A stretch of DNA of 64,000 nt from Caldisericota bacterium (GTDB lineage: Bacteria > Caldisericota > Caldisericia > UBA6126 > JAGPKI01). The position numbers and the translations under genes are program-made. The notes beneath the pieces were generated by a model, which was given only the letters and a program-made list of their open reading frames with translations, made no database searches and was not told where the DNA came from. The stretch lies in NCBI GenBank assembly GCA_052034135.1, contig JBPOJC010000039.1, positions 1,543 to 65,542 of the forward strand, given 5' to 3'. Positions 5,353 to 28,121 of this stretch are shown here, piece after piece (within the stretch, counting starts at the first letter, position 1; every line of letters starts with the position of its first letter).

Positions 5353-6465
5353 CTAACCTTTAACCAAATAACGACTTTTAAATGATGTAACTTTTATATA
5401 GTTTGAATTAATAGTTTGTAGTAATTCTTTATCTTTAGATGCTTCCAATAAAATTCCTTCAATAATTTCTTTAGTTCTTGGAAGGTTGTGAGAAAACATG
5501 ATCAGATTATGTCCTGCCTTCAATGATTGTATCCCTGCATTCACTAAATCAAGGCCTTGGATAGATAGTGGCATATCTGAAAGGTCATCAGTAACTACTA
5601 TTCCATCGAAATCAAGTTTATTTTTCAGATTATCAGTAACAATATAGTTTGAAAAAGTCGCTGGATTATCGCGGTCCAGAGCATCATATACAACGTGGCT
5701 TGTCATAACAAAAGAAGCTCCACTCTCAATTCCAGATTGGAAAATAGATATTGATTGGTCAATTATATCTTTATTAGAATCATCCTGTATAAACTTATAG
5801 TGAGGGTCATCTGAAATAAGTCCGAGTCCAGGAAAATGTTTCAATGTGGCACAAATATTATATTTATTTAATAAGCTAATAAAAGTTTTATTAAATGCAA
5901 TTAAATCTTCCTTTGATTTAAGCTTTAAACGTTTGGAAATAAAAGAATTTGGCACGAATGGAAAGTCAGCCAATGGGGCTAACTCGACATTAATTCCAAT
6001 TTTTGATAGTTCAACAATATCTCTCTCAATTTTTACCCAGTTTGGATTGCCGAGAGTGAAGATATTCTTAAGAAGGCCCATTCTATTGGCACCATCTGGT
6101 TCTTCGTCAAGCATAATGAAGTAGGGACATTTGGACTCCTCTTTAGAAATTGCCTGTAGTTGACTAATTAAGTTCTCTATTTGCTCAAATGAATCAAAAT
6201 TTCTCTGATATAACACAATACCAGCTGGTTTAATCGTACGCAGAATTGATTCTGTAAAAGAGTCTAAATACGCATAGGGGATTCCAACTATAATATTCTG
6301 ACCTAATTCTTCATTAATGTTAATGATACCTTCTTTTGGTAAGTTTAATGCGTCTATATTTACTGATCTATTCTTTGATATTATGTTTACAGGCAGCAAT
6401 TTTGTCATACTCAGGTGAAAAACCATAAATCCAACCAGAAGAATCAAACTGATGCGGTGAAACAT
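5353..6465 (-). CDS. Glycoside hydrolase family 3 beta-N-acetylhexosaminidase-like protein (NagZ-like), with signal/TM anchor
   Basis: KHFPGLG ... VVTDDLSDM ... AGHNLIMFSHN motifs of the GH3 N-terminal domain. The N-terminus is hydrophobic. Confidence 0.75.
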   Translation of the reverse strand: MFHRISLILLVGFMVFHLSMTKLLPVNIISKNRSVNIDALNLPKEGIININEELGQNIIVGIPYAYLDSFTESILRTIKPAGIVLYQRNFDSFEQIENLISQLQAISKEESKCPYFIMLDEEPDGANRMGLLKNIFTLGNPNWVKIERDIVELSKIGINVELAPLADFPFVPNSFISKRLKLKSKEDLIAFNKTFISLLNKYNICATLKHFPGLGLISDDPHYKFIQDDSNKDIIDQSISIFQSGIESGASFVMTSHVVYDALDRDNPATFSNYIVTDNLKNKLDFDGIVVTDDLSDMPLSIQGLDLVNAGIQSLKAGHNLIMFSHNLPRTKEIIEGILLEASKDKELLQTINSNYIKVTSFKSRYLVKG

Positions 6466-6469
6466 TTAT

Positions 6470-9070
6470 TCATTCCAAAATTGAGTAAAAACTAAAGGTA
6501 CTATCATCTAAAATTATGAATTTGTAAAGAAACTTATAAGAATCTGTAAAGGGAATAAAATTATACCGATACGGATCTTTTCCTAAAATCCATGATGTTA
6601 AATGAGCAAAATCCTCTTGTGTATTACCCTCGTATTCATTATCGCTCTCAGCAAATGTAATATAGTAATACTTATTTTTCTCTAACAGGTATGATGGCAA
6701 TATTTGAAAATGCAAACAATAACCACTCTCTATGGATTTATTCATTAATTTATCTTTTAAGTCATCTAAGGAGAGGTCTAATATTAAAAAATCTACATCA
6801 TCTAATGAAAAGTCTAAAATTAAAAAATCATTAGAATCATAAATATGTATGCGATTGAAAAGGTTGTGTTCGATAAAATCAAAAGTTTTATTATTTAAGA
6901 TAATTGTATCTAATCCTTGATTCTCAAAAACAATATCCAAACCATTTTTTTTGTTTTGTTTGAAATCAATTATACCTTCTTCAATTGGAGGAAAGGTAGC
7001 TCTATATCTTGAGGGTATTGTTATATCATCTCTTGCCCTAGCATGATCTCTAAGTTCAGTAGGTATTTTTTTAACAAGTGTTGGACGGACTAACTGCATA
7101 TCTTTATCCATAAAAATCATATCTGAAAGCTCTATTGTAATGTTACCTTTCTCTGAATTTGGTTTATAGTAAATTTGCATAACACAAGTAGAAGGATCAA
7201 TGTAAACAGGGTTTACCACTCTGAACCAATAAATACCATTTGTAATGCTCACCAACTCTATCTCTGAATCTCCAATTATTCTATATGAGTAAAAAGGCCC
7301 ACAGGCTTTTGCAGAAGGTAAAAAGTAGTCTAATAAACCTATCGTATCATCATAAAGCTCTCTCTGAGAATAATCTACCAACCATGAAAATTCAATTTTT
7401 AAATCTCTTATTAATCCTGGATTATCAATCTTTAAACCCACAAATTCTGCATAAAAAATATTTTTTACCTGAATTTCAGTTCCAGTATATGAGAAAAAAT
7501 GTCCGCTAAAACCAAAAATCGGGTTATCATAATTACTCGTGCGATCAATAATCATCGGTGGTTCCTTTAAACTCCTTAAATATTTCTCTTCGCCTTCACT
7601 ATATCTATAATAATATTCATTTAAAGGAGATGCATAAATAAGGTCCAATTCTAATTGATCGGAAATTGGATACCTGGATACCAAATTAAAATCAACTTGT
7701 TGATAATTCTCAGGGCTTGAGTAAATTAATTCTTCCTTTTCATCTATGTAAGTTAGAAATCTAAGGCTTCTCTGGTTGATATTCATAAAAAGGCTTGCTT
7801 CTTTAGCTGTTAGTGGTTTATCATAAATTCTAAGGCAATCAAGGAATCCACATAAACCATAATTTTTACCTGTATAATAACCTCCAAATTCGAGATTTTC
7901 TAATTTGTTTATATTGGTAAAATTAAACTTCTCACTTGATGGAATAGGTGAAATTTCTTTACCGTTTACGAATAATTTTATTTCCTTACCTGGAATATTC
8001 CATGATATGACTAAATGATACCATTGTATGTTGTTTAATCTCGTATTCCAAACTAAACGATTGTTGCTATTTCCAAGCCGAAAATATAAATTACCGTTTG
8101 ATAATTTCCCAAATTCAATTTGATTCTTAGAGTCTATGAATATATGTTCTGTTATTAATTCAGTTAAATTATAGAACTTTACTCGTGCTTCAACTGAACC
8201 TGCATTCGATAAAGTTTGTAAGTTTTTTGCAGGAACTGTGAAGTATACACTTTTTTCATTCAAATAACTATACCATTTTTGCCAGTCATTAAAGAAAATG
8301 TAAGGTCTTGGTTCATGATAAGACCATCTAACCCCCCATTCGAAGCCAAATTCCAATCTTGATAGAGTTCCATCATTTCCATTTCCTGAAAAATCCAAAA
8401 TTTTCTTGTCATTTACACTATCAAAATAATACCACCCCACAAGTCCTGGCTCTTGCTGAAATACTTTTTTAAAATCCGATAAATCCTCTTTTCTTTCGTT
8501 GCTATAGTACATATAGATTGTTTTTTTGGTATGTGCTTTAAGAAATGGTATTCTTAACCATAATTTTGTGACATCTCTACCGCAGCCGTATTCCAGCCAA
8601 TGTGGTATAATGGTTTGCCCATCTTCTTCTGTAAAATAAATGTTTTCACATGAGGGTGATAATTTTGAATCCCTGATTTTAGATAGAGAGTCCACATTTA
8701 TACTGATTATATAATTTTTTAAATCTTTATTATTATATTGAGTATTTAAAACAATCTTTTTTCTGTACTTACGAATTGTATTGTTAATTCTATTTCCAGC
8801 GGGATTCAGTTTCATTGCTTTTGTTTGAATATTCATTGATTGATTAGTTGAAATTTTCTCGATCTCTACTGGACCTAGTAGATCCCTGCTTGTATATTCA
8901 TCACCAGTTAAAAGCCGTTCAACTAGAGAATTATTCTTAGGCTTTAGTAAATTATCTTCTGGTTTTTTTACCAAAAGTAAAGGAATATTTATATTAAAGA
9001 AAAAAATGGTTAGAACTAATAATATTGATACTAAAAAAATATTTATTAGTCTAATAGATTTTCTTTCCAT
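6470..9070 (-). CDS. Large secreted/membrane-anchored protein with a concanavalin A-like (LamG-type) lectin domain
   Basis: 866 aa with an N-terminal TM segment. It contains a LamG-like end motif (...CLRIYDKPLTAKEASLF). There are no other recognisable catalytic motifs. Confidence 0.5.
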   Translation of the reverse strand: MERKSIRLINIFLVSILLVLTIFFFNINIPLLLVKKPEDNLLKPKNNSLVERLLTGDEYTSRDLLGPVEIEKISTNQSMNIQTKAMKLNPAGNRINNTIRKYRKKIVLNTQYNNKDLKNYIISINVDSLSKIRDSKLSPSCENIYFTEEDGQTIIPHWLEYGCGRDVTKLWLRIPFLKAHTKKTIYMYYSNERKEDLSDFKKVFQQEPGLVGWYYFDSVNDKKILDFSGNGNDGTLSRLEFGFEWGVRWSYHEPRPYIFFNDWQKWYSYLNEKSVYFTVPAKNLQTLSNAGSVEARVKFYNLTELITEHIFIDSKNQIEFGKLSNGNLYFRLGNSNNRLVWNTRLNNIQWYHLVISWNIPGKEIKLFVNGKEISPIPSSEKFNFTNINKLENLEFGGYYTGKNYGLCGFLDCLRIYDKPLTAKEASLFMNINQRSLRFLTYIDEKEELIYSSPENYQQVDFNLVSRYPISDQLELDLIYASPLNEYYYRYSEGEEKYLRSLKEPPMIIDRTSNYDNPIFGFSGHFFSYTGTEIQVKNIFYAEFVGLKIDNPGLIRDLKIEFSWLVDYSQRELYDDTIGLLDYFLPSAKACGPFYSYRIIGDSEIELVSITNGIYWFRVVNPVYIDPSTCVMQIYYKPNSEKGNITIELSDMIFMDKDMQLVRPTLVKKIPTELRDHARARDDITIPSRYRATFPPIEEGIIDFKQNKKNGLDIVFENQGLDTIILNNKTFDFIEHNLFNRIHIYDSNDFLILDFSLDDVDFLILDLSLDDLKDKLMNKSIESGYCLHFQILPSYLLEKNKYYYITFAESDNEYEGNTQEDFAHLTSWILGKDPYRYNFIPFTDSYKFLYKFIILDDSTFSFYSILE

Positions 9071-9218
9071 ATAAAAAATTTAATATAAACAAATAGATAA
9101 ATCAATAAAAATGCATAAATCTAATAAATATAAATTTTCTTATTTGATTTTTATTATAAATTTTATTATAAAGATAGTAAAATCTAACATGTAGATTCTA
9201 ATATAAAGGGAGGTTGAA

Positions 9219-11012
9219 ATGCAATACAAAAAGAAGTTATTATTTGTTCCTTCAATTTTGTTTTTAATAATAATTGCCTTAATTTTGCTCGGAAATTATT
9301 ATTTTCTAACAGAAGCTTCTGATTGTAAAGGTGGAGTTAATGGTGCAATTGTCTCTAAAATTAATAATACATACAAAGAAAATGTAACAGTAGAAGTTTA
9401 CAATGAAAATAATGAACTTGTATGGAGTGGGAAAACAGAAAGCGATGGGAAATTTGATACTGGTCTTACTTTACCTGAAGGTAATTATAAAGTAATTCCT
9501 TCTAAGACAAATTTTGTATTTACTCCTGAATACAAAGTTGTAGAAGTTAAATGTAATAATAAAGCTTTTGTAGCTTTCACTGTTATGGAAAGATGCAAAG
9601 GTGGAATTATGGGTTCTATTACTCCTTTAGAATATGGATATGATGTAGAAATTAAAATTTATTCTAATGATACAGATGAACTTGTGTGGAGTGGAAAAAC
9701 AGATAGGAATGGTAAATTTACAACAGGTAATATTTTGTATAAAGGGGAATATAAAGTTTTTCCACTTAAAAGTGGACTTATTTTTGAACCTGCTTCTCAA
9801 ACAGTAGATGTAATATGTTCACGTCTTGCAAATACCTCATTTAAAGTTAAACAGGATTGTAAGAGTGGGATAAAGGGTACAGTTATTCCCCAGGATTATG
9901 CTGAATGTGTTAAAATAAAGATATACAATGAAAATAATGAACTTGTATGGAGTGGGTCAACTGATGAAAAGGGAGTTTTTGATACTGATATGTCTCTACC
10001 GGAAGGGAAATATAAAGTTATTCCTTCTAAAGAAGGTTATTACTTTAAACCAGAAAATCAAAGCATTAATACAATATGCGGAAAAGTAGTATCACTCTTT
10101 TCTCAATTCATATGTGATAAATTATGTAAAGGTGCGATAGAAGGAACTATCAAACCTAAAGAACATGGTGAAAACTCCACTATAAAGATTTACAATGAAG
10201 ATGGTGAGCTTGTTTGGACTGATACCGCCTATGAAGAGGGTTATTTTTTTACAGGTTTTATTTTAGACACCGGAACAACTTACTCCTGGAGATATAGGGT
10301 TGTGCCATCTATGGATCAAGCAGTTTATACTCCTCCAAGTATAGAGGTTCCAGTTAAATGCGGAGAAAAGACTTTAGTAGAGTTTACCTGTGAAAATCCA
10401 TGTAAAGGTGGCATACAGGGTGCTATTAACCCTAAAGAGCACAAATATCCGATAAAAATAAATATCTACTCTGAAAAAGATGGAAAACTTGTGTGGAGTG
10501 GTTCCATTAATGATGATGGAGAATTTGACACAGGTTATAATCTACCTATTGCAAAGTACAAAGTAGTTCCTTCGAGTGTAGGCTACTCTTTCGATCCTAA
10601 ATCCGTAATAGTGCAGGTTAGATGTAAGCAAAAAGTATATGTTTCATTTAATTCAATAGAAATCTCTGATTGCCAGGTTCCAGTTAATATAAAAATAAAT
10701 GGACGATGCAGTGATGATTGCAAGAATCTTGTTACATTGTATGTATACAAGAAAAATGAAAATGGTTCATATATACCATATTACACTCTAACATCGATAT
10801 TAGACCAATTTGATAAAACTGGAAAAGCCAGCGCCTCTCTTCCTAAAGGAGAATATATGGTAACACCAAAAAAAACAGGTTGTGGTTATAAATGTGCTGG
10901 TGTTTCAGCGGTAGGTTGTAATTGTTCATCATGCAAGTGCAGTGGTGAAGATGCTATATTCGCAATTACCTGTGATTGCAAAGAAATTAATATATCATTT
11001 TTGTGTTACTAA
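9219..11012 (+). CDS. Secreted protein built from 5-6 tandem carboxypeptidase-regulatory-like / transthyretin-like beta-sandwich modules, ending in a Cys-rich C-terminal region
   Basis: A strong SD (GGGAGG) is followed by a signal/TM segment. About 90-95-aa modules recur, each starting CKGG/CKSG and containing 'ELVWSGKTDxxGKFDTG...EGxYKVxPSK'. The repeats are visible at the DNA level too. The C-terminus has many Cys (CGYKCAGVSAVGCNCSSCKCSG...). Confidence 0.55.
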   Translation: MQYKKKLLFVPSILFLIIIALILLGNYYFLTEASDCKGGVNGAIVSKINNTYKENVTVEVYNENNELVWSGKTESDGKFDTGLTLPEGNYKVIPSKTNFVFTPEYKVVEVKCNNKAFVAFTVMERCKGGIMGSITPLEYGYDVEIKIYSNDTDELVWSGKTDRNGKFTTGNILYKGEYKVFPLKSGLIFEPASQTVDVICSRLANTSFKVKQDCKSGIKGTVIPQDYAECVKIKIYNENNELVWSGSTDEKGVFDTDMSLPEGKYKVIPSKEGYYFKPENQSINTICGKVVSLFSQFICDKLCKGAIEGTIKPKEHGENSTIKIYNEDGELVWTDTAYEEGYFFTGFILDTGTTYSWRYRVVPSMDQAVYTPPSIEVPVKCGEKTLVEFTCENPCKGGIQGAINPKEHKYPIKINIYSEKDGKLVWSGSINDDGEFDTGYNLPIAKYKVVPSSVGYSFDPKSVIVQVRCKQKVYVSFNSIEISDCQVPVNIKINGRCSDDCKNLVTLYVYKKNENGSYIPYYTLTSILDQFDKTGKASASLPKGEYMVTPKKTGCGYKCAGVSAVGCNCSSCKCSGEDAIFAITCDCKEINISFLCY

Positions 11013-11032
11013 TTGTGTTGGTTAAATATATT

Positions 11033-13306
11033 TTAAGACACTAAGAGTGAGGCAAGATAGAGCTGGCCAAAGGATATTCCTCCATCATTTATTGGTACAT
11101 CTTTTGGTAAGTGAACATTAAATCCTTTCTCTGTTAGTATTGATTTTATTCTCTTTAATATATAAACATTCTGAAAAACTCCTCCAGATAGAATTACATC
11201 CTCTACTGAGTAATCCTTCCTTAAAATATTTGATACTTTAAGAATGATTGAGCAAATATAATTATGGAATTTCGCTGATATTTCTTCCTTACCGATACCT
11301 CGCTTAATGTCTGAAACAATGTCAACCATTAATGGTTCGAGTTTTATTATATACTCACCATTTTCTTCTAAAATAACAGGCTCATATGATATTGTAATTA
11401 AGGGAGAGGCAATAGATTCAAGCATCATTGCTCCCTCACCTTCAAAAGTTGTAGTATGGATTAAATCTAATAAGGATGAAACTCCATCAAATAGTCTTCC
11501 AATACTGGAAGTAATAGGCGTATTCATCTTATTTTTTAACATAAAATCAACTATTTGAACTTTGTCAGGCTCTATTGGCAAATTAAGAGGAATCTTATTT
11601 CCAAAACATTTTTTAAGAAGAGTATATGCAATTCTCCATACCTCCCTTGTAGCTATATCGCCACCAGGTAACTCAAAATATTCAAGATGGGCAACTCTTT
11701 TGTAATCTTTTCCCTCACAAAGAAAAATTTCTCCTCCCCATGAATTTCCATCTTCTCCAAAACCAACTCCATCAAAAGATACCCCAATTAAACACTTATC
11801 ATTTAAATTTAAGCTTCCAGCAACAGAAGCAACATGAGCTTTATGATGCTGAATTTTAATGAGAGGAAGATTTAAGCCTTCTGAAAAAATCGTCGAAAGA
11901 TAATCTGGGTGCAAATCGCATGCAACAAATTCTGGTTTTATTGTGAGCAAATCAAGTAAATCATAATATACCCACCTCATATATTCAAAAGAATCTTTAT
12001 TCTTCAAATCACCTATGTGTTGTGAAACATAAATTAAATTATTCTTAGATAGAGCAATTGTGTTTTTTAATTCTCCTCCAAAAGCAACCCCATCTTTTAG
12101 TTTGAATGGGACTTCTATCGGTTCTGGGACGAAACCACGCGATCGCCTTTGAATTAATCTCTCATTGCAAGCAAAAAACACTACTGAATCATCTATTTTT
12201 CGCCTTACCCTTCGATTATTAGTAAGAAAATAGTCAGCCATATCTTTAAGCTTCTCAAAAGCTTCGTCATTTGATGAAACTATGGGTTCGTCATGAACAT
12301 TACCGCTTGTCATAATAAGAGCATTTATTTTAAGATTACGAAAAATTAAATAATGAAGGGGAGTATAAGGAAGCATAATACCAATTTTCTTCAATCCAGG
12401 TGCTACAAATTCTGAGAGGTTATAATTATCACTCTTCTCCAATAGAACGATTGGCCTCTCAACACTTAATAATTCTTTTTCCTCACAACTATTCACGCAA
12501 GCAATCTCTTTTATACTTTCAATATCTGGCATCATAATAGCAAAGGGCTCATTTCCTCTCCTCTTGCTTTGTCTAAGCCTAAAAACTGATTCATCATTAT
12601 AAGCATTTGTCGCTAAATGGAACCCACCTATTCCCTTTATTGCAACTATTTTACCTTCTTCCAATAGCTTTTTACACAAATCTATTGCTTCTTTTGAAGA
12701 TGCTATTAAATTTTTAGAAGAATCAAAAAGAGAAACCTCAGGACCACATTCCTCGCAGGCATTTGGTTCTGCATGATATCTCCTTGTTTGAGGATCATTG
12801 TACTCCTCTAAACAATCACTACACATTTGAAAATCTGACATTGTTGTATTTTCTCGATCATACGGTAGATGTTCTATTATTGAATACCTTGGACCGCAAT
12901 TTGTACAGTTTATGAAGGGATAAAGGTATCTTCGGTTTTCTGGGTCAAATAACTCATCAATGCAATCTTTGCAAATGCAAAGGTCTTTTGGTATGTAAAT
13001 CCTTGATGGACTTTTTACAATAGAGTTTGTTATTCGGAAGTCTTCTTCGTCTTTTAAAGGAATTTCTACATACTCTATTTTTGCTATTTTAGCTACTGGA
13101 GGAGGATTCTCTCTTACTTCCTTAATGAAAGTATTCAGGTTTTCCTCTTCACCTTGGACCTCTAATTTAACAACATCGCTTGTATTGAAAACAAAACCTT
13201 TGAGATTCAAACTTTTTGCTACTTTGTATATAAATGGCCTAAATCCAACGCCCTGAATTACACCTTCTATTACTACTTGAAGCCTTTTTTGCATCAATTC
13301 CTCCAA
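11033..13306 (-). CDS. hypF: [NiFe]-hydrogenase maturation carbamoyltransferase HypF
   Basis: N-terminal acylphosphatase domain (VQGVGFRPF); two CxxC zinc-finger pairs; YrdC-like and Kae1/carbamoyltransferase C-terminal domains; 757 aa. Confidence 0.9.
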   Translation of the reverse strand: MEELMQKRLQVVIEGVIQGVGFRPFIYKVAKSLNLKGFVFNTSDVVKLEVQGEEENLNTFIKEVRENPPPVAKIAKIEYVEIPLKDEEDFRITNSIVKSPSRIYIPKDLCICKDCIDELFDPENRRYLYPFINCTNCGPRYSIIEHLPYDRENTTMSDFQMCSDCLEEYNDPQTRRYHAEPNACEECGPEVSLFDSSKNLIASSKEAIDLCKKLLEEGKIVAIKGIGGFHLATNAYNDESVFRLRQSKRRGNEPFAIMMPDIESIKEIACVNSCEEKELLSVERPIVLLEKSDNYNLSEFVAPGLKKIGIMLPYTPLHYLIFRNLKINALIMTSGNVHDEPIVSSNDEAFEKLKDMADYFLTNNRRVRRKIDDSVVFFACNERLIQRRSRGFVPEPIEVPFKLKDGVAFGGELKNTIALSKNNLIYVSQHIGDLKNKDSFEYMRWVYYDLLDLLTIKPEFVACDLHPDYLSTIFSEGLNLPLIKIQHHKAHVASVAGSLNLNDKCLIGVSFDGVGFGEDGNSWGGEIFLCEGKDYKRVAHLEYFELPGGDIATREVWRIAYTLLKKCFGNKIPLNLPIEPDKVQIVDFMLKNKMNTPITSSIGRLFDGVSSLLDLIHTTTFEGEGAMMLESIASPLITISYEPVILEENGEYIIKLEPLMVDIVSDIKRGIGKEEISAKFHNYICSIILKVSNILRKDYSVEDVILSGGVFQNVYILKRIKSILTEKGFNVHLPKDVPINDGGISFGQLYLASLLVS

Positions 13307-22197: not shown

Positions 22198-22932
22198 TTA
22201 TTCTTGACAAGCTTCTATGAAATCACAGTATTGGCAAAACTCATTCTCTTTTCTTTCAAAAGAAGAACTTATTATGCTTTTTGAAACCTCTTTAATAACT
22301 TCTTCACCCTTTAAAAAATCTTCTTCATTTAATTCAATTGTCAACTTCTCATTTTTTCTTAAAAAATACCAGCTTGTTAATCTGGCAGTAAAGTTATATT
22401 TTGCCTTAAAACCGAGCGAATAAATTATTAATTGCAATCTGTCGATAAAATCAATATTGGAAGTATCTAATACATTGCCAGTCTTATAATCTATTATTTC
22501 AAATTCATCTCCTGGTAGTTTATCTATACGGTCAATCTTTCCAGCCATATTAATGCCTTCTACATTAAAATAAATCTTCTCCTCCACAGAAAATGCAGGC
22601 TTAAAAGCAAAAATATTTTTCTTATAGTAACTACACAATAACTCTTTTGCTTCAGATTTTGCCTCTTCTTCGTGTTCCTCATCCCAGAAACCTGTTCCTA
22701 TCCAATATTCATCAACAAGCGATAATAGTTCATGAAGTCTTGGAAGTTTATTAACAAATTTAATTGGATTATACATTTCTTCTAAAACTTTATGAATTGT
22801 CTCACCAAAACTATAATAATATTTTGGCTTTGTTGGAAGTTTTAATACATACTGAAAATGGTATTTCTTAGGACATTCTAAGAACGTTGAGATCTTTGAA
22901 TAGCTTAAAGTGATATTTTTTTCCATATGCAA
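22198..22932 (-). CDS. Cas4/RecB-like PD-(D/E)xK nuclease with a 4-Cys cluster (stand-alone)
   Basis: N-terminal SKISTFLECPKKYHF; the EIIDYKTG RecB motif III; C-terminal CQYCDFIEAC. No cas genes or CRISPR array are nearby. Confidence 0.7.
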   Translation of the reverse strand: MHMEKNITLSYSKISTFLECPKKYHFQYVLKLPTKPKYYYSFGETIHKVLEEMYNPIKFVNKLPRLHELLSLVDEYWIGTGFWDEEHEEEAKSEAKELLCSYYKKNIFAFKPAFSVEEKIYFNVEGINMAGKIDRIDKLPGDEFEIIDYKTGNVLDTSNIDFIDRLQLIIYSLGFKAKYNFTARLTSWYFLRKNEKLTIELNEEDFLKGEEVIKEVSKSIISSSFERKENEFCQYCDFIEACQE

Positions 22933-23629: not shown

Positions 23630-24012
23630 AGTGAGACTCCTTCGGCACCAATAAGACACTCCCTCAGGAAGACGGGAGAGGGATGGTCATTCTGAGCGTA
23701 AGCGAAGAATCTTCGTATCTGTCATCCCCGAAATCATTTATCGGGGATCCAGACCTTATTTCTAAACATACTTCTAAACTCTCTGGATTCCCGCAATCGC
23801 TTGGAATGACATGAAAAATCGAGAGAATGACATGAAAAGATGAGACCCTTCGTCGCCGGGAAAAACGCTCTTCAGGGTGACAGAGAGGAGGTGGATAGGA
23901 TTATTTTGTCATCCCCGAATGTATTTATAAGGGATCCAAGTCTTCGTTTTTATTATTTTGTATTTAGGAGTGACCGAATTTATAGTTTTACCTCACTATA
24001 TATTATGGAAGA
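23630..24012. repeat. Copy B of the hairpin-rich intergenic repeat family, ending 77 bp upstream of tRNA-Pro
   Basis: Contains gtcattctgagcgtaagcgaagaatc, gtcATCCCCGAaatcatttaTCGGGGATccagacc, ..ctctggattccc.., gaatgaca short repeats, gacccttcgtcgc, ctcttcagggtgacagag and the terminal ..ctcactatatattatggaag. Confidence 0.6.
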
Positions 24013-24088: not shown

Positions 24089-24165
<77 letters not shown>

Positions 24166-24796
24166 TTATTAATGTTCATTTTTATTACGTTTATCCTATC
24201 CATTTAAAGATTTCTTCATCTATGGTAAAGTAATTCATGATATTGTTCATGAATTAAAATTAAATTGAAAAAGTCTTGTAGATTTGGTATAAAATTTGAT
24301 ATATAGTGATTGATTTTATAATGATTTTAGAAGTTTATATTTAATTGGTAAGATGAAAGATTTAACCTCTGAGGTAAGTTATAGGGGATTATAATATTTG
24401 TTTATATGTGAAATATCTACTAAATAAGATTACAAACGAATATGTTTAGAGGAGAACAGTTAGCTTTATAAAAGAGGATGCAATGGCTTATCAAAAATTA
24501 ATTTTTAAACTGAAAAAGAACTTCAAGAAGCAATTCTAAATGAAAAAGAAAGAGGAGCCTCTGATTTAGAAATTGGTCAGAAATACGGAGTTACTTTTAG
24601 ATATATCGAACAGCTCATTACAAAGACTCAAGGTCTAAATATTAGCAATTTAAAAGTTTCTAAAAAAATAGAAAAACTTTATCCGAAAAAATTTAACGAG
24701 GAAAAAACCACGATCTGGAGTTTTAAGCAAAGAGGAAACTGGGCAACTCATAGTGGAGAGTATAGAGGTAATTGGTCTCATTACATACCAAGGAAT

Positions 24797-26041
24797 GTGA
24801 TTCTAAAATATTCAAAACCTGGAGAATTAGTATTAGATTATTTTTGCGGTGCTGGAACAACAGCTGTAGAGTGTAAGCTTTTAGGAAGAAAATGTGTCGC
24901 CTTAGATATTAATTATAAAGCAATTGAATTGGCAAAAAAGAATATAGATTTTAGTGTGGAACCACAGCAACAATCACTTTTTGGTCAAAAACAACATTTT
25001 GAAGTCTACGAACCAAGGCTTATTGTTGGTGATGCCAGAGACTTATCATTTATAGAAGATAATTCTATTGATTTGATTTGTGCTCATCCACCTTATGCAA
25101 ATATTATTCATTATACAGATAGAAGTGAAGGTGATTTGTCGTTTTTTGATATAGATGAATTCTTAAAGGAAATGTCCAAGGTAGCTAAAGAAAGTTTTAG
25201 GGTGTTAAAACCTGGCAGACAATGTGCTATTTTGATAGGTGATACTCGAAGCAAAAAACATGTAATCCCTTTAGGTTTCAAACTAATAGATGTTTATTTA
25301 TCTGCTGGTTTTAAGCTGAGAGAGCTAATCGTTAAACAACAACACAATTGTAAAACTACAGGTTTTTGGTATACAAATAGTATAAAATACAATTTTCTTC
25401 TGTTGGCTCATGAGTATTTACCAGTTTTCGAGAAACCAGCAATATCGATTCCTGCAGTTGCAAAAGAAGAAAACACAATAAATTATGATTTGTTTATTCC
25501 TTATTCAAAGAATCCATCGGTAAAAAGTAAATCTAACGAGCTTGAGACCACAACAGTGTGGAGTTTGCCAGAGAAGGATTTCGAGGAGCATTTAAATAGA
25601 AATGTAATTGAAAGATATTCGAACGGTAGCAAATATTCAATTATTAATTTTGTGACAAATTCTAATGAAGAAACCACCTTTTTTGATAATAAAAGAGAAA
25701 AAAACAAAGCTTTGCTTTTTATCAAATTGCCACTTTTAGACAATAATCTATCTAACTCAAATATTGAATTGTATTTGCAAAAAATAAAAGAAATTGTAAA
25801 TAATGGATTACCTACAATAATAGAAGACGGCTTTATAGTTATTCAAACTCAAGATGTAAGAATTGATGGATACGTAAAGCCTCTTGCTAAAGAATTAGTG
25901 AATGAATTAACAAATGATGATTTATGGCTAAAGGAAATAGTGATTGTTACTCAGGAAGGAGTAAATTCAAAAATACAAAATTTAGAGGAGTATTTAAAGA
26001 TAGTGCATCAATATTTACTTGTTTACGAGGTGATAAAATAA
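24797..26041 (+). CDS. DNA methyltransferase (N6-adenine/N4-cytosine amino-MTase). It carries an FxGxG-type SAM motif (DYFCGAGTT) and an (A)HPPY catalytic motif. The annotated ORF is probably only the central segment of a longer, frame-disrupted gene
   Basis: Motifs VLDYFCGAGTTAVEC and DLICAHPPYANIIHY, then ..RVLKPGRQCAILIGD.. and ..HEYLPVFEKP. The reading frame is open upstream to 24509 with HTH-like sequence (LQEAILNEKERGASDLEIGQKYGVTFRYIEQLI) and no start codon. The 3' end can be joined to ORF2 by a +1 A in an A4 run. Confidence 0.75.
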   Translation: MILKYSKPGELVLDYFCGAGTTAVECKLLGRKCVALDINYKAIELAKKNIDFSVEPQQQSLFGQKQHFEVYEPRLIVGDARDLSFIEDNSIDLICAHPPYANIIHYTDRSEGDLSFFDIDEFLKEMSKVAKESFRVLKPGRQCAILIGDTRSKKHVIPLGFKLIDVYLSAGFKLRELIVKQQHNCKTTGFWYTNSIKYNFLLLAHEYLPVFEKPAISIPAVAKEENTINYDLFIPYSKNPSVKSKSNELETTTVWSLPEKDFEEHLNRNVIERYSNGSKYSIINFVTNSNEETTFFDNKREKNKALLFIKLPLLDNNLSNSNIELYLQKIKEIVNNGLPTIIEDGFIVIQTQDVRIDGYVKPLAKELVNELTNDDLWLKEIVIVTQEGVNSKIQNLEEYLKIVHQYLLVYEVIK

Positions 26042-26055
26042 AGAAAACCTTCAGC

Positions 26056-26466
26056 TTGTTAAAAACAATCTTTTACTATTTGGAGTCTTCTTATAAAATA
26101 TGGAAAGTTAATCGTTTGCAAATAGATGACCTTGTTTATACTACTAACGAAAATGTTCGTTTTGAAGTGTATCCAGGTAAAAAGTTACAATCACCTTATG
26201 ATTTTATTGTAAAATTTAGACAACCAGGCAGACGAGCAAGAACACCAGCTCATGTTCATTTGATTGTAGAAATGTATGTTAAGCATGCTTATAATCCATC
26301 TTTAACTTTAAAATTAAGAGACCATATCTTAACAATGCTCAGTCAAATTAAACCAGTAAATACATTTCCGCCAACACTTCAGGTTTTCAAACTTGAACAT
26401 ATTGAACCATTTAAGGATTTGGATAAAGTTGGCGAATTCACAGTTGAGTTCTTGCTTTTGCAATAG
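26056..26466 (+). CDS. Hypothetical protein, or a detached C-terminal (TRD-like) segment of the methyltransferase
   Basis: ORF 25924..26466 overlaps the MTase end by 118 bp. Its first 39 aa look like out-of-frame sequence. There is no in-frame ATG; TTG at 26056 is the first plausible start, and the SD is weak. Confidence 0.35.
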   Translation: MLKTIFYYLESSYKIWKVNRLQIDDLVYTTNENVRFEVYPGKKLQSPYDFIVKFRQPGRRARTPAHVHLIVEMYVKHAYNPSLTLKLRDHILTMLSQIKPVNTFPPTLQVFKLEHIEPFKDLDKVGEFTVEFLLLQ

Positions 26467-26691
26467 AATTAGTAGTAATACGGGAGAAGACCAATTATCC
26501 AAATGGAACTGCAACTGAGAATTTGTATAAGAATTTTGGAGTTAAAGACAGATTTTCAGTAATTCAGGGAGCAGTATGGAAAGGCAGGAGATAATTTAAA
26601 GAAAACCAATCATATTGCCCAAGAGCAGTTAAAAGAAATTTATAAATGTTATAACAGTTAAAAATTAATTTATCTTAGAGGTGAATCAAAA

Positions 26692-27786
26692 ATGAAATTA
26701 ACGAATGATCAAATAACAATTCTAATTGACAAATTTATAAGCTCCGAAGATGCTAAAGTATGGATAAAACAAAGGCAGGATGATAACAAACGATGGAAAG
26801 AATGGATAGATCCCAATAAAATGAGCACTATTTCAGATGAAGAACTGAAGAATAAATTCTTAGAATATTTTAATGAGGGGGCTGGTAGACATCCATTTAA
26901 TGCTGTATATAGAGACAGAATTATAAGAGATATAAACAAATTTAGAGAAACTATAAACTTTCTTATAAATGAATCAACACCTGTTAAGGAAAGACTAAAT
27001 GAAGTGTTAAATGCTAACGGAAGATATCATATTGAAGGCATAGGTAAGGGTCTTGCTACATCTATTTTAATGGATTTAGATTCGCAAAAATATGCAACAT
27101 GGAATAATAAAACAAATATGGGTTTAGAAACTCTCGGTTTAACTCCTCAATTTACTCGTAAAGATGATTGGGGAACAAGATATGAAAAAGTTATGGATGC
27201 AATTACTTATATTAAGAGCTTGAAGTCAGAACTCAGTTTTTTAGAGGTTGACCACTTTTTGCACATAGTTTCAGCTGAAGAACAAGGGATAGAGGCAGTT
27301 AAGGCATTGGTAGAAGGCAGAGAAATATCAACTACCGTTTTCCAAACGATGGATCATATTTCTAAAGAAAGAGAAAGCATGGAATTTGTTATGGAAAAGT
27401 ATCTTGAAGAGTTTATTGAAGCGAATTTTGATAGAATAGATTTTGGAGCTAAACTTCAATTATATCAAGATGAAGAAAACACAGGTAGACAATATCCAAC
27501 ACCTATAGGCAATATTGATTTATTGGCATTTGATAAAGACAAAAAAGAGTTTGTAGTAATGGAACTAAAGAAAGGTAGAAGTAGTGATGTTGTAGTAGGT
27601 CAAATATTAAGATATATGGGTTGGGTAAAGGAAAACTTAGCTATCAGCGAAAATAATGATTACAACGTAAGGGGAATTATTATAGTCAAAGAGAAAGACG
27701 ATAAATTGGATTACGCTTTAAAATTTGTACCAAATGTAAGCTTATTTTTGTACACTATTTCTTTTGGATTGAAGATGATTAAATAA
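26692..27786 (+). CDS. Putative nuclease with an N-terminal helix-hairpin-helix region and a C-terminal NucS/DUF4263(Shedu)-like PD-(D/E)xK domain
   Basis: SD AGAGGTGA is present. HIEGIGKGLATSIL fits the HhH consensus (hxxhxGhGxxxAxxhh). The C-terminal GNIDLLAFDKDKKEFVVMELKKGRSSDVVVGQILRYMGWV matches the D..ExK nuclease core followed by the QxxRY motif of NucS-type restriction-endonuclease-like folds. Confidence 0.7.
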   Translation: MKLTNDQITILIDKFISSEDAKVWIKQRQDDNKRWKEWIDPNKMSTISDEELKNKFLEYFNEGAGRHPFNAVYRDRIIRDINKFRETINFLINESTPVKERLNEVLNANGRYHIEGIGKGLATSILMDLDSQKYATWNNKTNMGLETLGLTPQFTRKDDWGTRYEKVMDAITYIKSLKSELSFLEVDHFLHIVSAEEQGIEAVKALVEGREISTTVFQTMDHISKERESMEFVMEKYLEEFIEANFDRIDFGAKLQLYQDEENTGRQYPTPIGNIDLLAFDKDKKEFVVMELKKGRSSDVVVGQILRYMGWVKENLAISENNDYNVRGIIIVKEKDDKLDYALKFVPNVSLFLYTISFGLKMIK

Positions 27787-27815: not shown

Positions 27816-28121
27816 CAATATCCTGCTATATTCTCGCACTCAATTGTAACTGACATTTTAAAAAATGAACTTATCTTCAAAGATATTGTTGTAACAGATG
27901 ACATATCAGATATGCCGCTATCTATGAAGGGATTAAACTTAACAGATGCAGGCATAAAGGCACTTAAAGCGGGGCATAACTTAATAATGTTTTCGCATAA
28001 TTTAGATAAAACAAGAGAAATCTTTGATGAAATCCTCTATAAAGTAAATACAGATCCAGAGTTAAAAACTATTATAGAGAACAATTATCTAAAAATCATA
28101 GCTTTTAAGGATAGAATTTAA
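27816..28121 (+). pseudogene. Remnant 3' fragment (about 100 codons) of a nagZ-like GH3 gene; diverged duplicate of the C-terminus of the gene at 5353..6465
   Basis: Translation YPAIFSHSIVTDILKNELIFKDIVVTDDISDMPLSMKGLNLTDAGIKALKAGHNLIMFSHNLDKTREI... aligns residue-for-residue with NPATFSNYIVTDNLKNKLDFDGIVVTDDLSDMPLSIQGLDLVNAGIQSLKAGHNLIMFSHNLPRTKEI... of the intact gene. It has no N-terminal part and no start. Confidence 0.7.

Follow-up and report, generated by a model that had tools for sequence, protein, structure and literature searches.

A NucS-type END nuclease gene in a Caldisericota bacterium, probably encoding a single-protein, modification-dependent restriction endonuclease

The locus and its genes

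The window considered here is a stretch of 64,000 nucleotides from a Caldisericota bacterium (GenBank assembly GCA_052034135.1, contig JBPOJC010000039.1, positions 1,543 to 65,542 of the forward strand), in which an ORF of the forward strand at 26692..27786 encodes a protein of 364 aa followed by a stop codon. In the ORF listing of the window, this frame opens with an ATG, and a strong Shine-Dalgarno sequence, i.e., AGAGGTGA (26677..26684, forward strand), can be read directly 7 nt 5' of it. As 2,402 proteins match the 364-aa protein at E ≤ 1e-3 in a search of approximately 5.8 billion proteins, this is not a chance ORF. The homologues listed are the best 120 of these 2,402 matches; nearly all of them are full-length, with about 360 aa, and have the N-terminus MKL.D.QI in common, which confirms the start codon. 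On these grounds, namely the ORF, the Shine-Dalgarno sequence and the homologues, the preliminary description was right to see a real gene here, with the two peptide motifs it quoted, HIEGIGKGLATSIL (aa 113-126) and GNIDLLAFDKDKKEFVVMELKKGRSSDVVVGQILRYMGWV (aa 273-312). Scanning for promoters and terminators was uninformative in the AT-rich window, with 32 promoter-like sites vs 22 expected and no terminators.

Upstream of this gene are found (i) a tRNA-Pro (24089-24165), (ii) the ORF of an N6/N4 methyltransferase (24797-26041, forward strand), 650 bp away and matching the PADLOC model MTase_II with an E-value of 1.7e-76, and (iii) an ORF at 25924-26466, the 3' part of which corresponds to a gene call of 128 aa. 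Downstream, a 69-aa ORF precedes genes for large secreted beta-propeller proteins. Neither this 69-aa ORF nor the ORF at 25924-26466 gave any match to Pfam, NCBIfam, PHROGs or PADLOC. Metagenome contigs break at 23666-23712 in MITE-like repeats and at 24139-24141 in the tRNA, and one strain variant carries a SRAP gene beyond 23712.

The reading frame of the methyltransferase is open upstream to 24509; with this extension, MTase_II is matched over its whole length and scores 322 instead of 255 bits. No ATG, GTG or TTG occurs in the extended frame before 24797, which leaves the first ~48 profile positions without a canonical start, and the ATG at 24484 lies in another frame, from which the methyltransferase frame could be reached only through a -1 shift on CTG-AAA-AAG (~24508-24519). 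Since this disrupted 5' end is identical in five independent metagenome assemblies, the methyltransferase gene is either a fixed pseudogene or frameshift-dependent. Within the window, the 3' end of the tRNA-Pro is not repeated as an attR-type site, nor does any shift in GC content mark an islet, and a discrete tRNA-linked islet at this locus is only weakly indicated.

Membership of the END family and domain architecture

END nucleases were reported in 2025 by Yee et al. (bioRxiv 10.1101/2025.03.31.646159; PMC12191111), where "iEndoIII" designates the inactivated EndoIII/Ogg-like domain serving as modification sensor in the PLD-nuclease defence protein END-PaCF1. Within this family, END-Mag (MDV2503288.1) is a NucS-type, PD-DExK-iEndoIII END nuclease from a metagenome, which restricts modified-G phages, namely Pa5Oct and Bas19/20/21/25, and is without effect on modified-T, modified-C or unmodified phages; the evidence consists of plaque assays reported in a preprint, and END-Mag is the only NucS-type member tested (PMC12191111). 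END-Mag is found among the homologues of the window protein (P0124, in the 90% cluster of homologue P0048), and BLASTP aligns the two over 363 residues with 60% identity and 78% similarity (E 7e-169). Judging from this similarity, the window gene is a NucS-type member of a published and experimentally supported family. The pairing of domains, which had been taken as new from the window sequence, was thus already published in 2025, and the window protein is a further member. Both proteins have nearly the same length (362 aa in END-Mag vs 364 aa), the same two domains in the same order with homology from end to end, the same invariant nuclease and sensor residues (END-Mag clusters with P0048, one of the sequences in the family alignment) and a stand-alone gene, that of END-Mag being at its own locus without an adjacent methyltransferase. 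They differ in origin, i.e., a pelagic-sediment MAG for END-Mag and an anaerobic-digester bacterium for the window copy, in the residue S131 of a Gly/Pro loop, where 40 of 44 relatives have the usual Pro, and in 40% of their sequence, so that the modification recognised may differ as well.

The C-terminal domain (aa 233-364; 27388..27783, forward strand) can be firmly assigned to the PD-(D/E)xK nucleases and resembles NucS/EndoMS. Pfam NucS_C matches aa 265-332 with 29.0 bits vs a cut-off of 24, and phmmer against PDB sequences aligns the same segment to P. abyssi NucS, where D276, E291, K293, Q304 and Y308 fall on D160, E174, K176, Q187 and Y191, respectively. The catalytic core, composed of D276 (27517-27519), E291 (27562-27564) and K293 (27568-27570), spans 27517..27570, and the QxxxY helix motif from Q304 to Y308 lies at 27601..27615, both on the forward strand. 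All five residues are invariant (44/44) in an alignment of 44 sequences taking in relatives down to ~30% identity, as are E235, D299 and R307. In the AlphaFold2 model (37-sequence alignment as input; mean pLDDT 82.9), D276 is on a strand, E291 on the next strand with K293 just after, and Q304 and Y308 on the following helix, and two independent structure comparisons lead from the C-terminal domain to NucS/EndoMS (PDB 2vld, 5gke) and from the N-terminal domain to Ogg2 glycosylases. A core with an Asp on a strand, E-x-K and a Q/R/Y helix, as proposed in the preliminary description, is therefore recovered by the model, by phmmer and by NucS_C, and the active site looks intact. Between this domain and the N-terminal one, aa 213-232 (27328..27387, forward strand) form a flexible linker, with a pLDDT <50 at 214-232 and a variable alignment.

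While the likeness to NucS holds for this domain, the likeness to Shedu and DUF1016 that had also been noticed is at the superfamily level only. For Shedu SduA, membership of which is recognised by a DUF4263 domain or the Shedu PADLOC model, neither was found and DUF4263 gave no match; for YhcG/DUF1016, YhcG_C scored 30.8 bits, below its cut-off of 32.5, and the N-terminal YhcG match was absent. A Shedu-like effector, in which the nuclease would be triggered by free DNA ends and not by base modification, is extremely unlikely. NucS proper was considered and rejected as well, for the two NCBIfam NucS equivalogs scored 34.9 and 22 bits vs cut-offs of 216 and 252, in the C-terminal domain only. 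The RecB-like PD-(D/E)xK domain of the NucS/EndoMS mismatch endonuclease (2vld, 5gke) is likewise C-terminal, and its D/E-x-K/Q...Y residues align one to one with those of the window protein, whereas its N-terminal domain binds mismatches or ssDNA and the window protein has a glycosylase fold there.

This N-terminal sensor domain (aa 1-212; 26692..27327, forward strand) adopts an Ogg2-type HhH-GPD DNA-glycosylase fold, predicted to be catalytically inactive ("iEndoIII"). Its first 200 residues are without any Pfam, NCBIfam, PHROGs or PADLOC match, and the window protein matches neither the HhH-GPD nor the OGG model of Pfam. In the AlphaFold2 model, the region forms a complete HhH-GPD glycosylase fold, not an isolated HhH motif. 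The helix-hairpin-helix element occupies aa 98-129 (26983..27078, forward strand), with model helices at 98-106 and 119-129 and, between them, the GxG hairpin G116-I-G118 (27037-27045, forward strand), in which G118 is present in 42 and G116 in 38 of the 44 family members. With this domain, Foldseek retrieved DNA-bound M. jannaschii Ogg (3knt) with a probability of 1.00 and a target-normalised TM of 0.50-0.51, TM1821 (3n0u) with a probability of 0.92 and SsoOgg (3fhg) with a probability of 0.87, MagIII and MUTYH matching more weakly than these Ogg2 structures. SsoOgg (3FHG) and M. jannaschii Ogg are also the top HHpred templates reported for the END-Mag sensor (PMC12191111). At the sequence level, the similarity to Ogg2 is not significant: profiles of the N-terminal domain against the PDB match Ogg2 chains weakly, with E 0.2-0.35 from one alignment (A2) and ~2 from another (A4), ranking under spurious cholera-toxin and coiled-coil matches, and hhalign of the N-terminal domain alignment against E. 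coli EndoIII (sequence identical to 2abk) was uninformative, with a probability of 0.3. The preliminary description had seen here an HhH DNA-binding region without catalytic motifs, which stands, except that the region is a whole Ogg2-type glycosylase fold, corresponding in the published work to a modified-base sensor.

In Ogg2 and HhH-GPD enzymes, the catalytic Lys is found at +2 and the catalytic Asp at +20 from the last Gly of the hairpin, and the catalytic residues of E. coli EndoIII are K120 and D138. For Ogg2, the published pairs are Lys129/Asp147 (MjaOgg) and Lys128/Asp146 (SsoOgg; PMC5069365). In the window protein, the position at +2 from the GxG is G120, which is Ala/Gly in the family consensus and never Lys, a neighbouring basic residue alternating between Lys and Arg. 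Twenty residues past G118 and immediately before a model helix (139-147) stands N138 (codon AAT, 27103..27105, forward strand), with Asn in 44 of 44 sequences. Offset extrapolation from the weak HMMER matches (E 0.2-0.35) brings SsoOgg/MjaOgg D146/D147 to profile column 135/136, i.e., N138/N139, with SsoOgg D146 falling on N138, and, from the same matches, the base-stacking Trp198 of MjaOgg to H191, a position occupied by Trp in the divergent subfamily. Considering motif spacing, secondary structure and this extrapolation together, N138 appears to be at the former catalytic Asp position, and the glycosylase fold has apparently been inactivated, with Asn for Asp and without the Lys. As such, the domain resembles Ogg2 (MjaOgg 3knt, SsoOgg 3fhg, TM1821 3n0u) in the HhH-GPD fold, the HhH hairpin and an aromatic or His residue at the extrapolated Trp198 position, and differs from it in having apparently Gly/Ala and Asn as equivalents of Lys129 and Asp147, and in being fused to a nuclease. 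A classification as an HhH-GPD glycosylase (Ogg2) proper was set aside, since the HhH and loop are present but Asn occupies the inferred Asp position in 44/44 and no Lys is found at GxG+2.

The glycosylase fold being genuine, an active two-step enzyme may be envisaged, in which the N-terminal domain would remove a base that is labile or modified, leaving an abasic site for the nuclease to cut, as a fused counterpart of glycosylase-based defences, e.g., Brig1 or the Brig3/BapA pair. The sensor domain also has invariant residues of a pocket type, among them R74, R101, Y134, Y164 and D187 in the 44-sequence alignment, and D187 could in principle serve as a general base. Certain HhH glycosylases, e.g., Tag, lack the canonical Asp and nevertheless process alkylated bases that are labile, which counts as a precedent for activity in this case. 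Glycosylases in defence do exist (PMC13160076). Against this stand the Asn found in 44/44 at the expected catalytic Asp position, the Gly/Ala at the catalytic Lys position, the adjoining basic residue, whose alternation of Lys with Arg speaks against Schiff-base chemistry, and the view of the END-Mag authors, who treat the glycosylase-like domain as an inactivated sensor (PMC12191111); an active glycosylase is accordingly considered unlikely, though the least so of the alternatives weighed here.

Homologues and their neighbourhoods

Full-length relatives with 71-76% identity are encoded by ANME-1 and Aenigmatarchaeota archaea, a Spirochaete MAG and Methanotrichaceae, and relatives at 43-67% identity occur, among others, in Terriglobia, Kryptonia, Saganbacteria, Dehalococcoidia, Heimdallarchaeota and Woesearchaeota. 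Horizontal transfer is the best explanation for such a pattern across bacteria and archaea. Matches were found on plasmids (n = 26, of which 3 full-length), and no homologue was present in 50,697 phage records.

Around the close homologues, the neighbourhoods are variable and non-syntenic. All-against-all BLAST of the neighbours within 6 kb in 19 close loci gave no recurring family, with the exception of two families, each present in three loci of mixed subfamilies. Likewise, when all ORFs of ≥100 aa located up to 4 kb from the 19 close homologues (n = 103) were analysed with Pfam and PADLOC, neither a recurring neighbour nor an enriched methyltransferase family was observed. Defence candidates are present in a scattered fashion only, i.e., TmtA, PDC-S01/S09/S11/S13 and a ThsA-like Macro protein. 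Over these 19 loci, the close subfamily has no conserved partner gene. In the divergent subfamily (~30% identity), hsdM is nearby in 11 of the 29 loci flanked by ≥2 kb of sequence in either direction, and in eight loci the gene is embedded in a Type I restriction-modification (R-M) operon, in the order hsdR-hsdM-[gene]-hsdS with 4-nt start/stop overlaps and translational coupling; these embedded loci belong mostly to Rhodobacterales, and also to Chloroflexota, KSB1 and Bacillota.

These neighbourhoods bear on two further explanations. The first would make the protein the restriction partner of the adjacent N6/N4 methyltransferase, cutting unmethylated DNA as in a Type II R-M pair, and it has in its favour the position of the methyltransferase ORF on the same strand shortly upstream and its strong MTase_II match. 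Such pairing is opposed by the absence of methyltransferase enrichment around the close homologues, by the disrupted 5' end of the methyltransferase in all five assemblies, with which an active cognate restriction enzyme would be lethal, and by the work on END-Mag, which was expressed from a clone in heterologous hosts and for which no partner methyltransferase is described (PMC12191111). A Type II pair is hence about as improbable as a Shedu-like effector. The tRNA and the methyltransferase noted at the outset are real and lie upstream, but the association of nuclease and methyltransferase looks incidental at this locus, and the co-occurrence of homologues with methyltransferases that the preliminary description had envisaged is not seen around the 19 close homologues.

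The second explanation holds that the protein is a housekeeping DNA-repair nuclease, NucS/EndoMS-like or lesion-directed, its Ogg-like domain locating oxidised guanine in the host genome. The closest solved structures of both domains are indeed those of repair enzymes, i.e., NucS/EndoMS and Ogg2, and relatives are labelled "endonuclease NucS" by NCBI. This reading is contradicted by the absence of the NucS N-terminal domain, by a patchy distribution in which bacterial sequences are 71-76% identical to archaeal ones, by variable, non-syntenic neighbourhoods, by copies on plasmids and within Type I R-M operons, and by the restriction of phages by the homologue END-Mag (PMC12191111). A role in repair is very unlikely, and while the biology of NucS/EndoMS is repair, that of the window protein would be defence.

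Proposed mode of action and related defence systems

Most probably, the window protein, as a NucS-type member of the END family, works as a Type IV-like restriction endonuclease that depends on DNA modification and needs no second protein. The earlier view of a stand-alone antiphage effector gains support from END-Mag, a full-length homologue restricting modified-guanine phages, and by analogy with this literature an antiphage activity may be expected of the window protein. In the mechanism proposed, the Ogg2-like HhH-glycosylase domain would bind duplex DNA via its HhH element and probe bases in the former lesion pocket, presumably by base-flipping. With Asn in place of the catalytic Asp and no Schiff-base Lys, base excision would be impossible, and the domain would act as a sensor of hypermodified, i.e., non-canonical, bases. 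The target would most probably be a modified guanine as for END-Mag, e.g., a 7-deazaguanine derivative, although at 60% identity this is uncertain. Recognition would license the NucS-like PD-(D/E)xK domain to cut modified phage DNA, probably as a dimer like NucS, sensing and cutting being coupled in this way, while host DNA would be spared; as host DNA would lack the modification, no partner methyltransferase would be needed.

Besides END-Mag, several known systems are related to the window protein by one or other of its parts. END-PaCF1 from Pseudomonas aeruginosa combines, in the same manner, an inactivated EndoIII/Ogg-like sensor with a nuclease, has no methyltransferase and restricts hypermodified phage DNA, but its nuclease is of the HxK phospholipase-D family and N-terminal, whereas that of the window protein is PD-(D/E)xK and C-terminal; END-PaCF1 reportedly also acts irrespective of the kind of modification, in contrast to END-Mag, for which restriction was confined to modified-G phages. 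McrBC and other Type IV enzymes with modular readers, i.e., ADAM/DUF3578, EVE, SRA or YTH, share the logic of sensor plus nuclease, the window protein differing from them in being one polypeptide without a GTPase motor. A direct connection to this group is provided by the Salinibacter ruber plasmid pSR76, on which a McrB-type protein of 1,136 aa has the same sensor domain (hhalign, E 7e-47, probability 100) ahead of MrcB_N and AAA_5, with a PDDEXK_7 nuclease gene ~1 kb downstream. Since it is also fused to MrcB_N and AAA_5 near a PDDEXK_7 gene, the domain has the character of an exchangeable sensor module of Type IV systems.

A PADLOC candidate, PDC-S02, has the nuclease module in common with the window protein, its model PDLC04824 matching this module and the segment preceding it (E 2.7e-45). 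Membership of PDC-S02 was considered and rejected, only profile positions 154-306 of 308 being covered. Proteins with the length of PDC-S02 (~305 aa) have the same nuclease module and a different N-terminal domain ("RYWVIAP..."), and no published mechanism for PDC-S02 was found in a literature search.

The basic picture set in 2025 is left unchanged by the present survey. Points that possibly go beyond that description are (i) the subfamily embedded in Type I R-M operons, (ii) the nuclease module shared with PDC-S02 and (iii) the set of invariant sensor residues. Combining the Type I-embedded subfamily and PDC-S02 with a possible sensing of something other than modified G by the window copy, it can tentatively be imagined, with the balance tilting against it, that the NucS-type END module is one of several exchangeable components in a wider toolkit that has so far not been described. 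If so, an hsdM-[END]-hsdS operon would attack both unmodified DNA, through Type I, and hypermodified DNA, through END, and PDC-S02 would likewise restrict DNA depending on its modification, but through another reader, namely its "RYWVIAP..." N-terminus.

For annotation, "endonuclease NucS" labels on END-type proteins are misleading, and with only half of the PDC-S02 profile covered in PADLOC, defence annotation may miss proteins of this type. A genuine defence nuclease encoded by a single gene can be recognised correctly from the sequence alone, as this case shows. The survey extends the published description in that the NucS-type END family is of very large size and has passed between bacteria and archaea, and the window protein offers, beside END-Mag, another NucS-type comparison point for which hypermodifications these sensors recognise.

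Immediate surroundings of the nuclease gene

Upstream of the nuclease gene lies a methyltransferase gene (24484-26041, + strand) whose 5' end is disrupted. Its reading frame is open upstream as far as 24509, and the PADLOC MTase_II profile, which scores 255 bits without this upstream stretch, reaches 322 bits and is complete once it is included. This frame has no canonical start upstream of the GTG at 24797, and the ATG at 24484 joins it only via a -1 shift on CTG-AAA-AAG (approximately 24508-24519). The sequence of the disrupted 5' end is identical in five independent assemblies. The gene is thus either a pseudogene or subject to a frameshift, be it programmed or phase-variable.

The nuclease gene is itself flanked on one side by a small ORF of 128 aa (26080-26466, + strand) and on the other by one of 69 aa (27912-28121, + strand), neither of which has a family match in Pfam, NCBIfam, PHROGs or PADLOC. 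By BLAST, no counterpart of the 128-aa ORF adjoins homologues of the nuclease at other loci, a result covering this ORF only as the 69-aa ORF is under the size cut-off of the neighbour comparison. Farther upstream, a PDDEXK_1/Cas4-like nuclease of 244 aa with a C-terminal Cys cluster (22198-22932, - strand) is encoded by a gene overlapping the end of coaE; its position is kept in every strain contig seen and it is probably a housekeeping nuclease of the RecB family.

Between coaE and tRNA-Pro, short MITE-like repeats occur (23650-23960), e.g., 'gtcattctgagcgtaagcgaagaatc' and two copies of 'tgtcatccccgaa...gggatcca'. Many metagenome contigs stop at 23666-23712 or begin within the tRNA at 24139-24141. 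Past 23712, one strain variant (L099) carries a SRAP (MCGRF...) gene replacing the window sequence.

A divergent subfamily within Type I restriction-modification operons

The same two-domain protein, some 30% identical, constitutes a divergent subfamily encoded between hsdM and hsdS in Type I R-M operons, where the gene order is hsdR-[FRG]-hsdM-gene-hsdS with 4-nt overlaps (L034, L036, L037, L040, L042, L043, L060, L068 and L091, 6884-7963 in the latter). Considering loci with at least 2 kb of flanking sequence on both sides, this association concerns 11 of the 29 loci of the divergent subfamily versus none of the 9 loci of the close subfamily, i.e., the near relatives of the window protein.

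At three loci (L068, 11952-13013; L011; L034), some family members have nearby a gene for a second protein, unrelated to them and about 350 aa long, whose N-terminal nuclease domain is NucS_C-like; in one case this gene lies immediately 3' of the Type I operon.

Variation in the N-terminal domain and other domain combinations

Within the glycosylase-like sensor of the window protein, residue 131 (27082-27084) is a Ser, the corresponding position being Pro in 40 of 44 relatives; it sits in the Gly/Pro loop that separates the HhH hairpin from N138, the invariant Asn at the inferred catalytic Asp position.

The NucS-like nuclease module is also found, at 45-61% identity, in proteins of about 305 aa with a different N-terminal domain starting 'RYWVIAP...ISIGW..LGD' (L049, L055, L063, L069, L071, L073, L077 and L079-L087, e.g., L085 7533-8465). 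This domain, for which no Pfam match was found, may be another DNA-reader domain, and the length of these proteins agrees with that of the PADLOC profile for the candidate defence system PDC-S02.

The sensor domain occurs on plasmid pSR76 of Salinibacter ruber (L090) in a protein of 1,136 aa (5917-9327), where it is joined to MrcB_N (DUF3578) and a McrB-type GTPase of the AAA_5 family. A PDDEXK_7 nuclease gene (10295-11068) is located about 1 kb 3' of the fusion gene. The locus resembles a McrBC-type system that has two reader domains.
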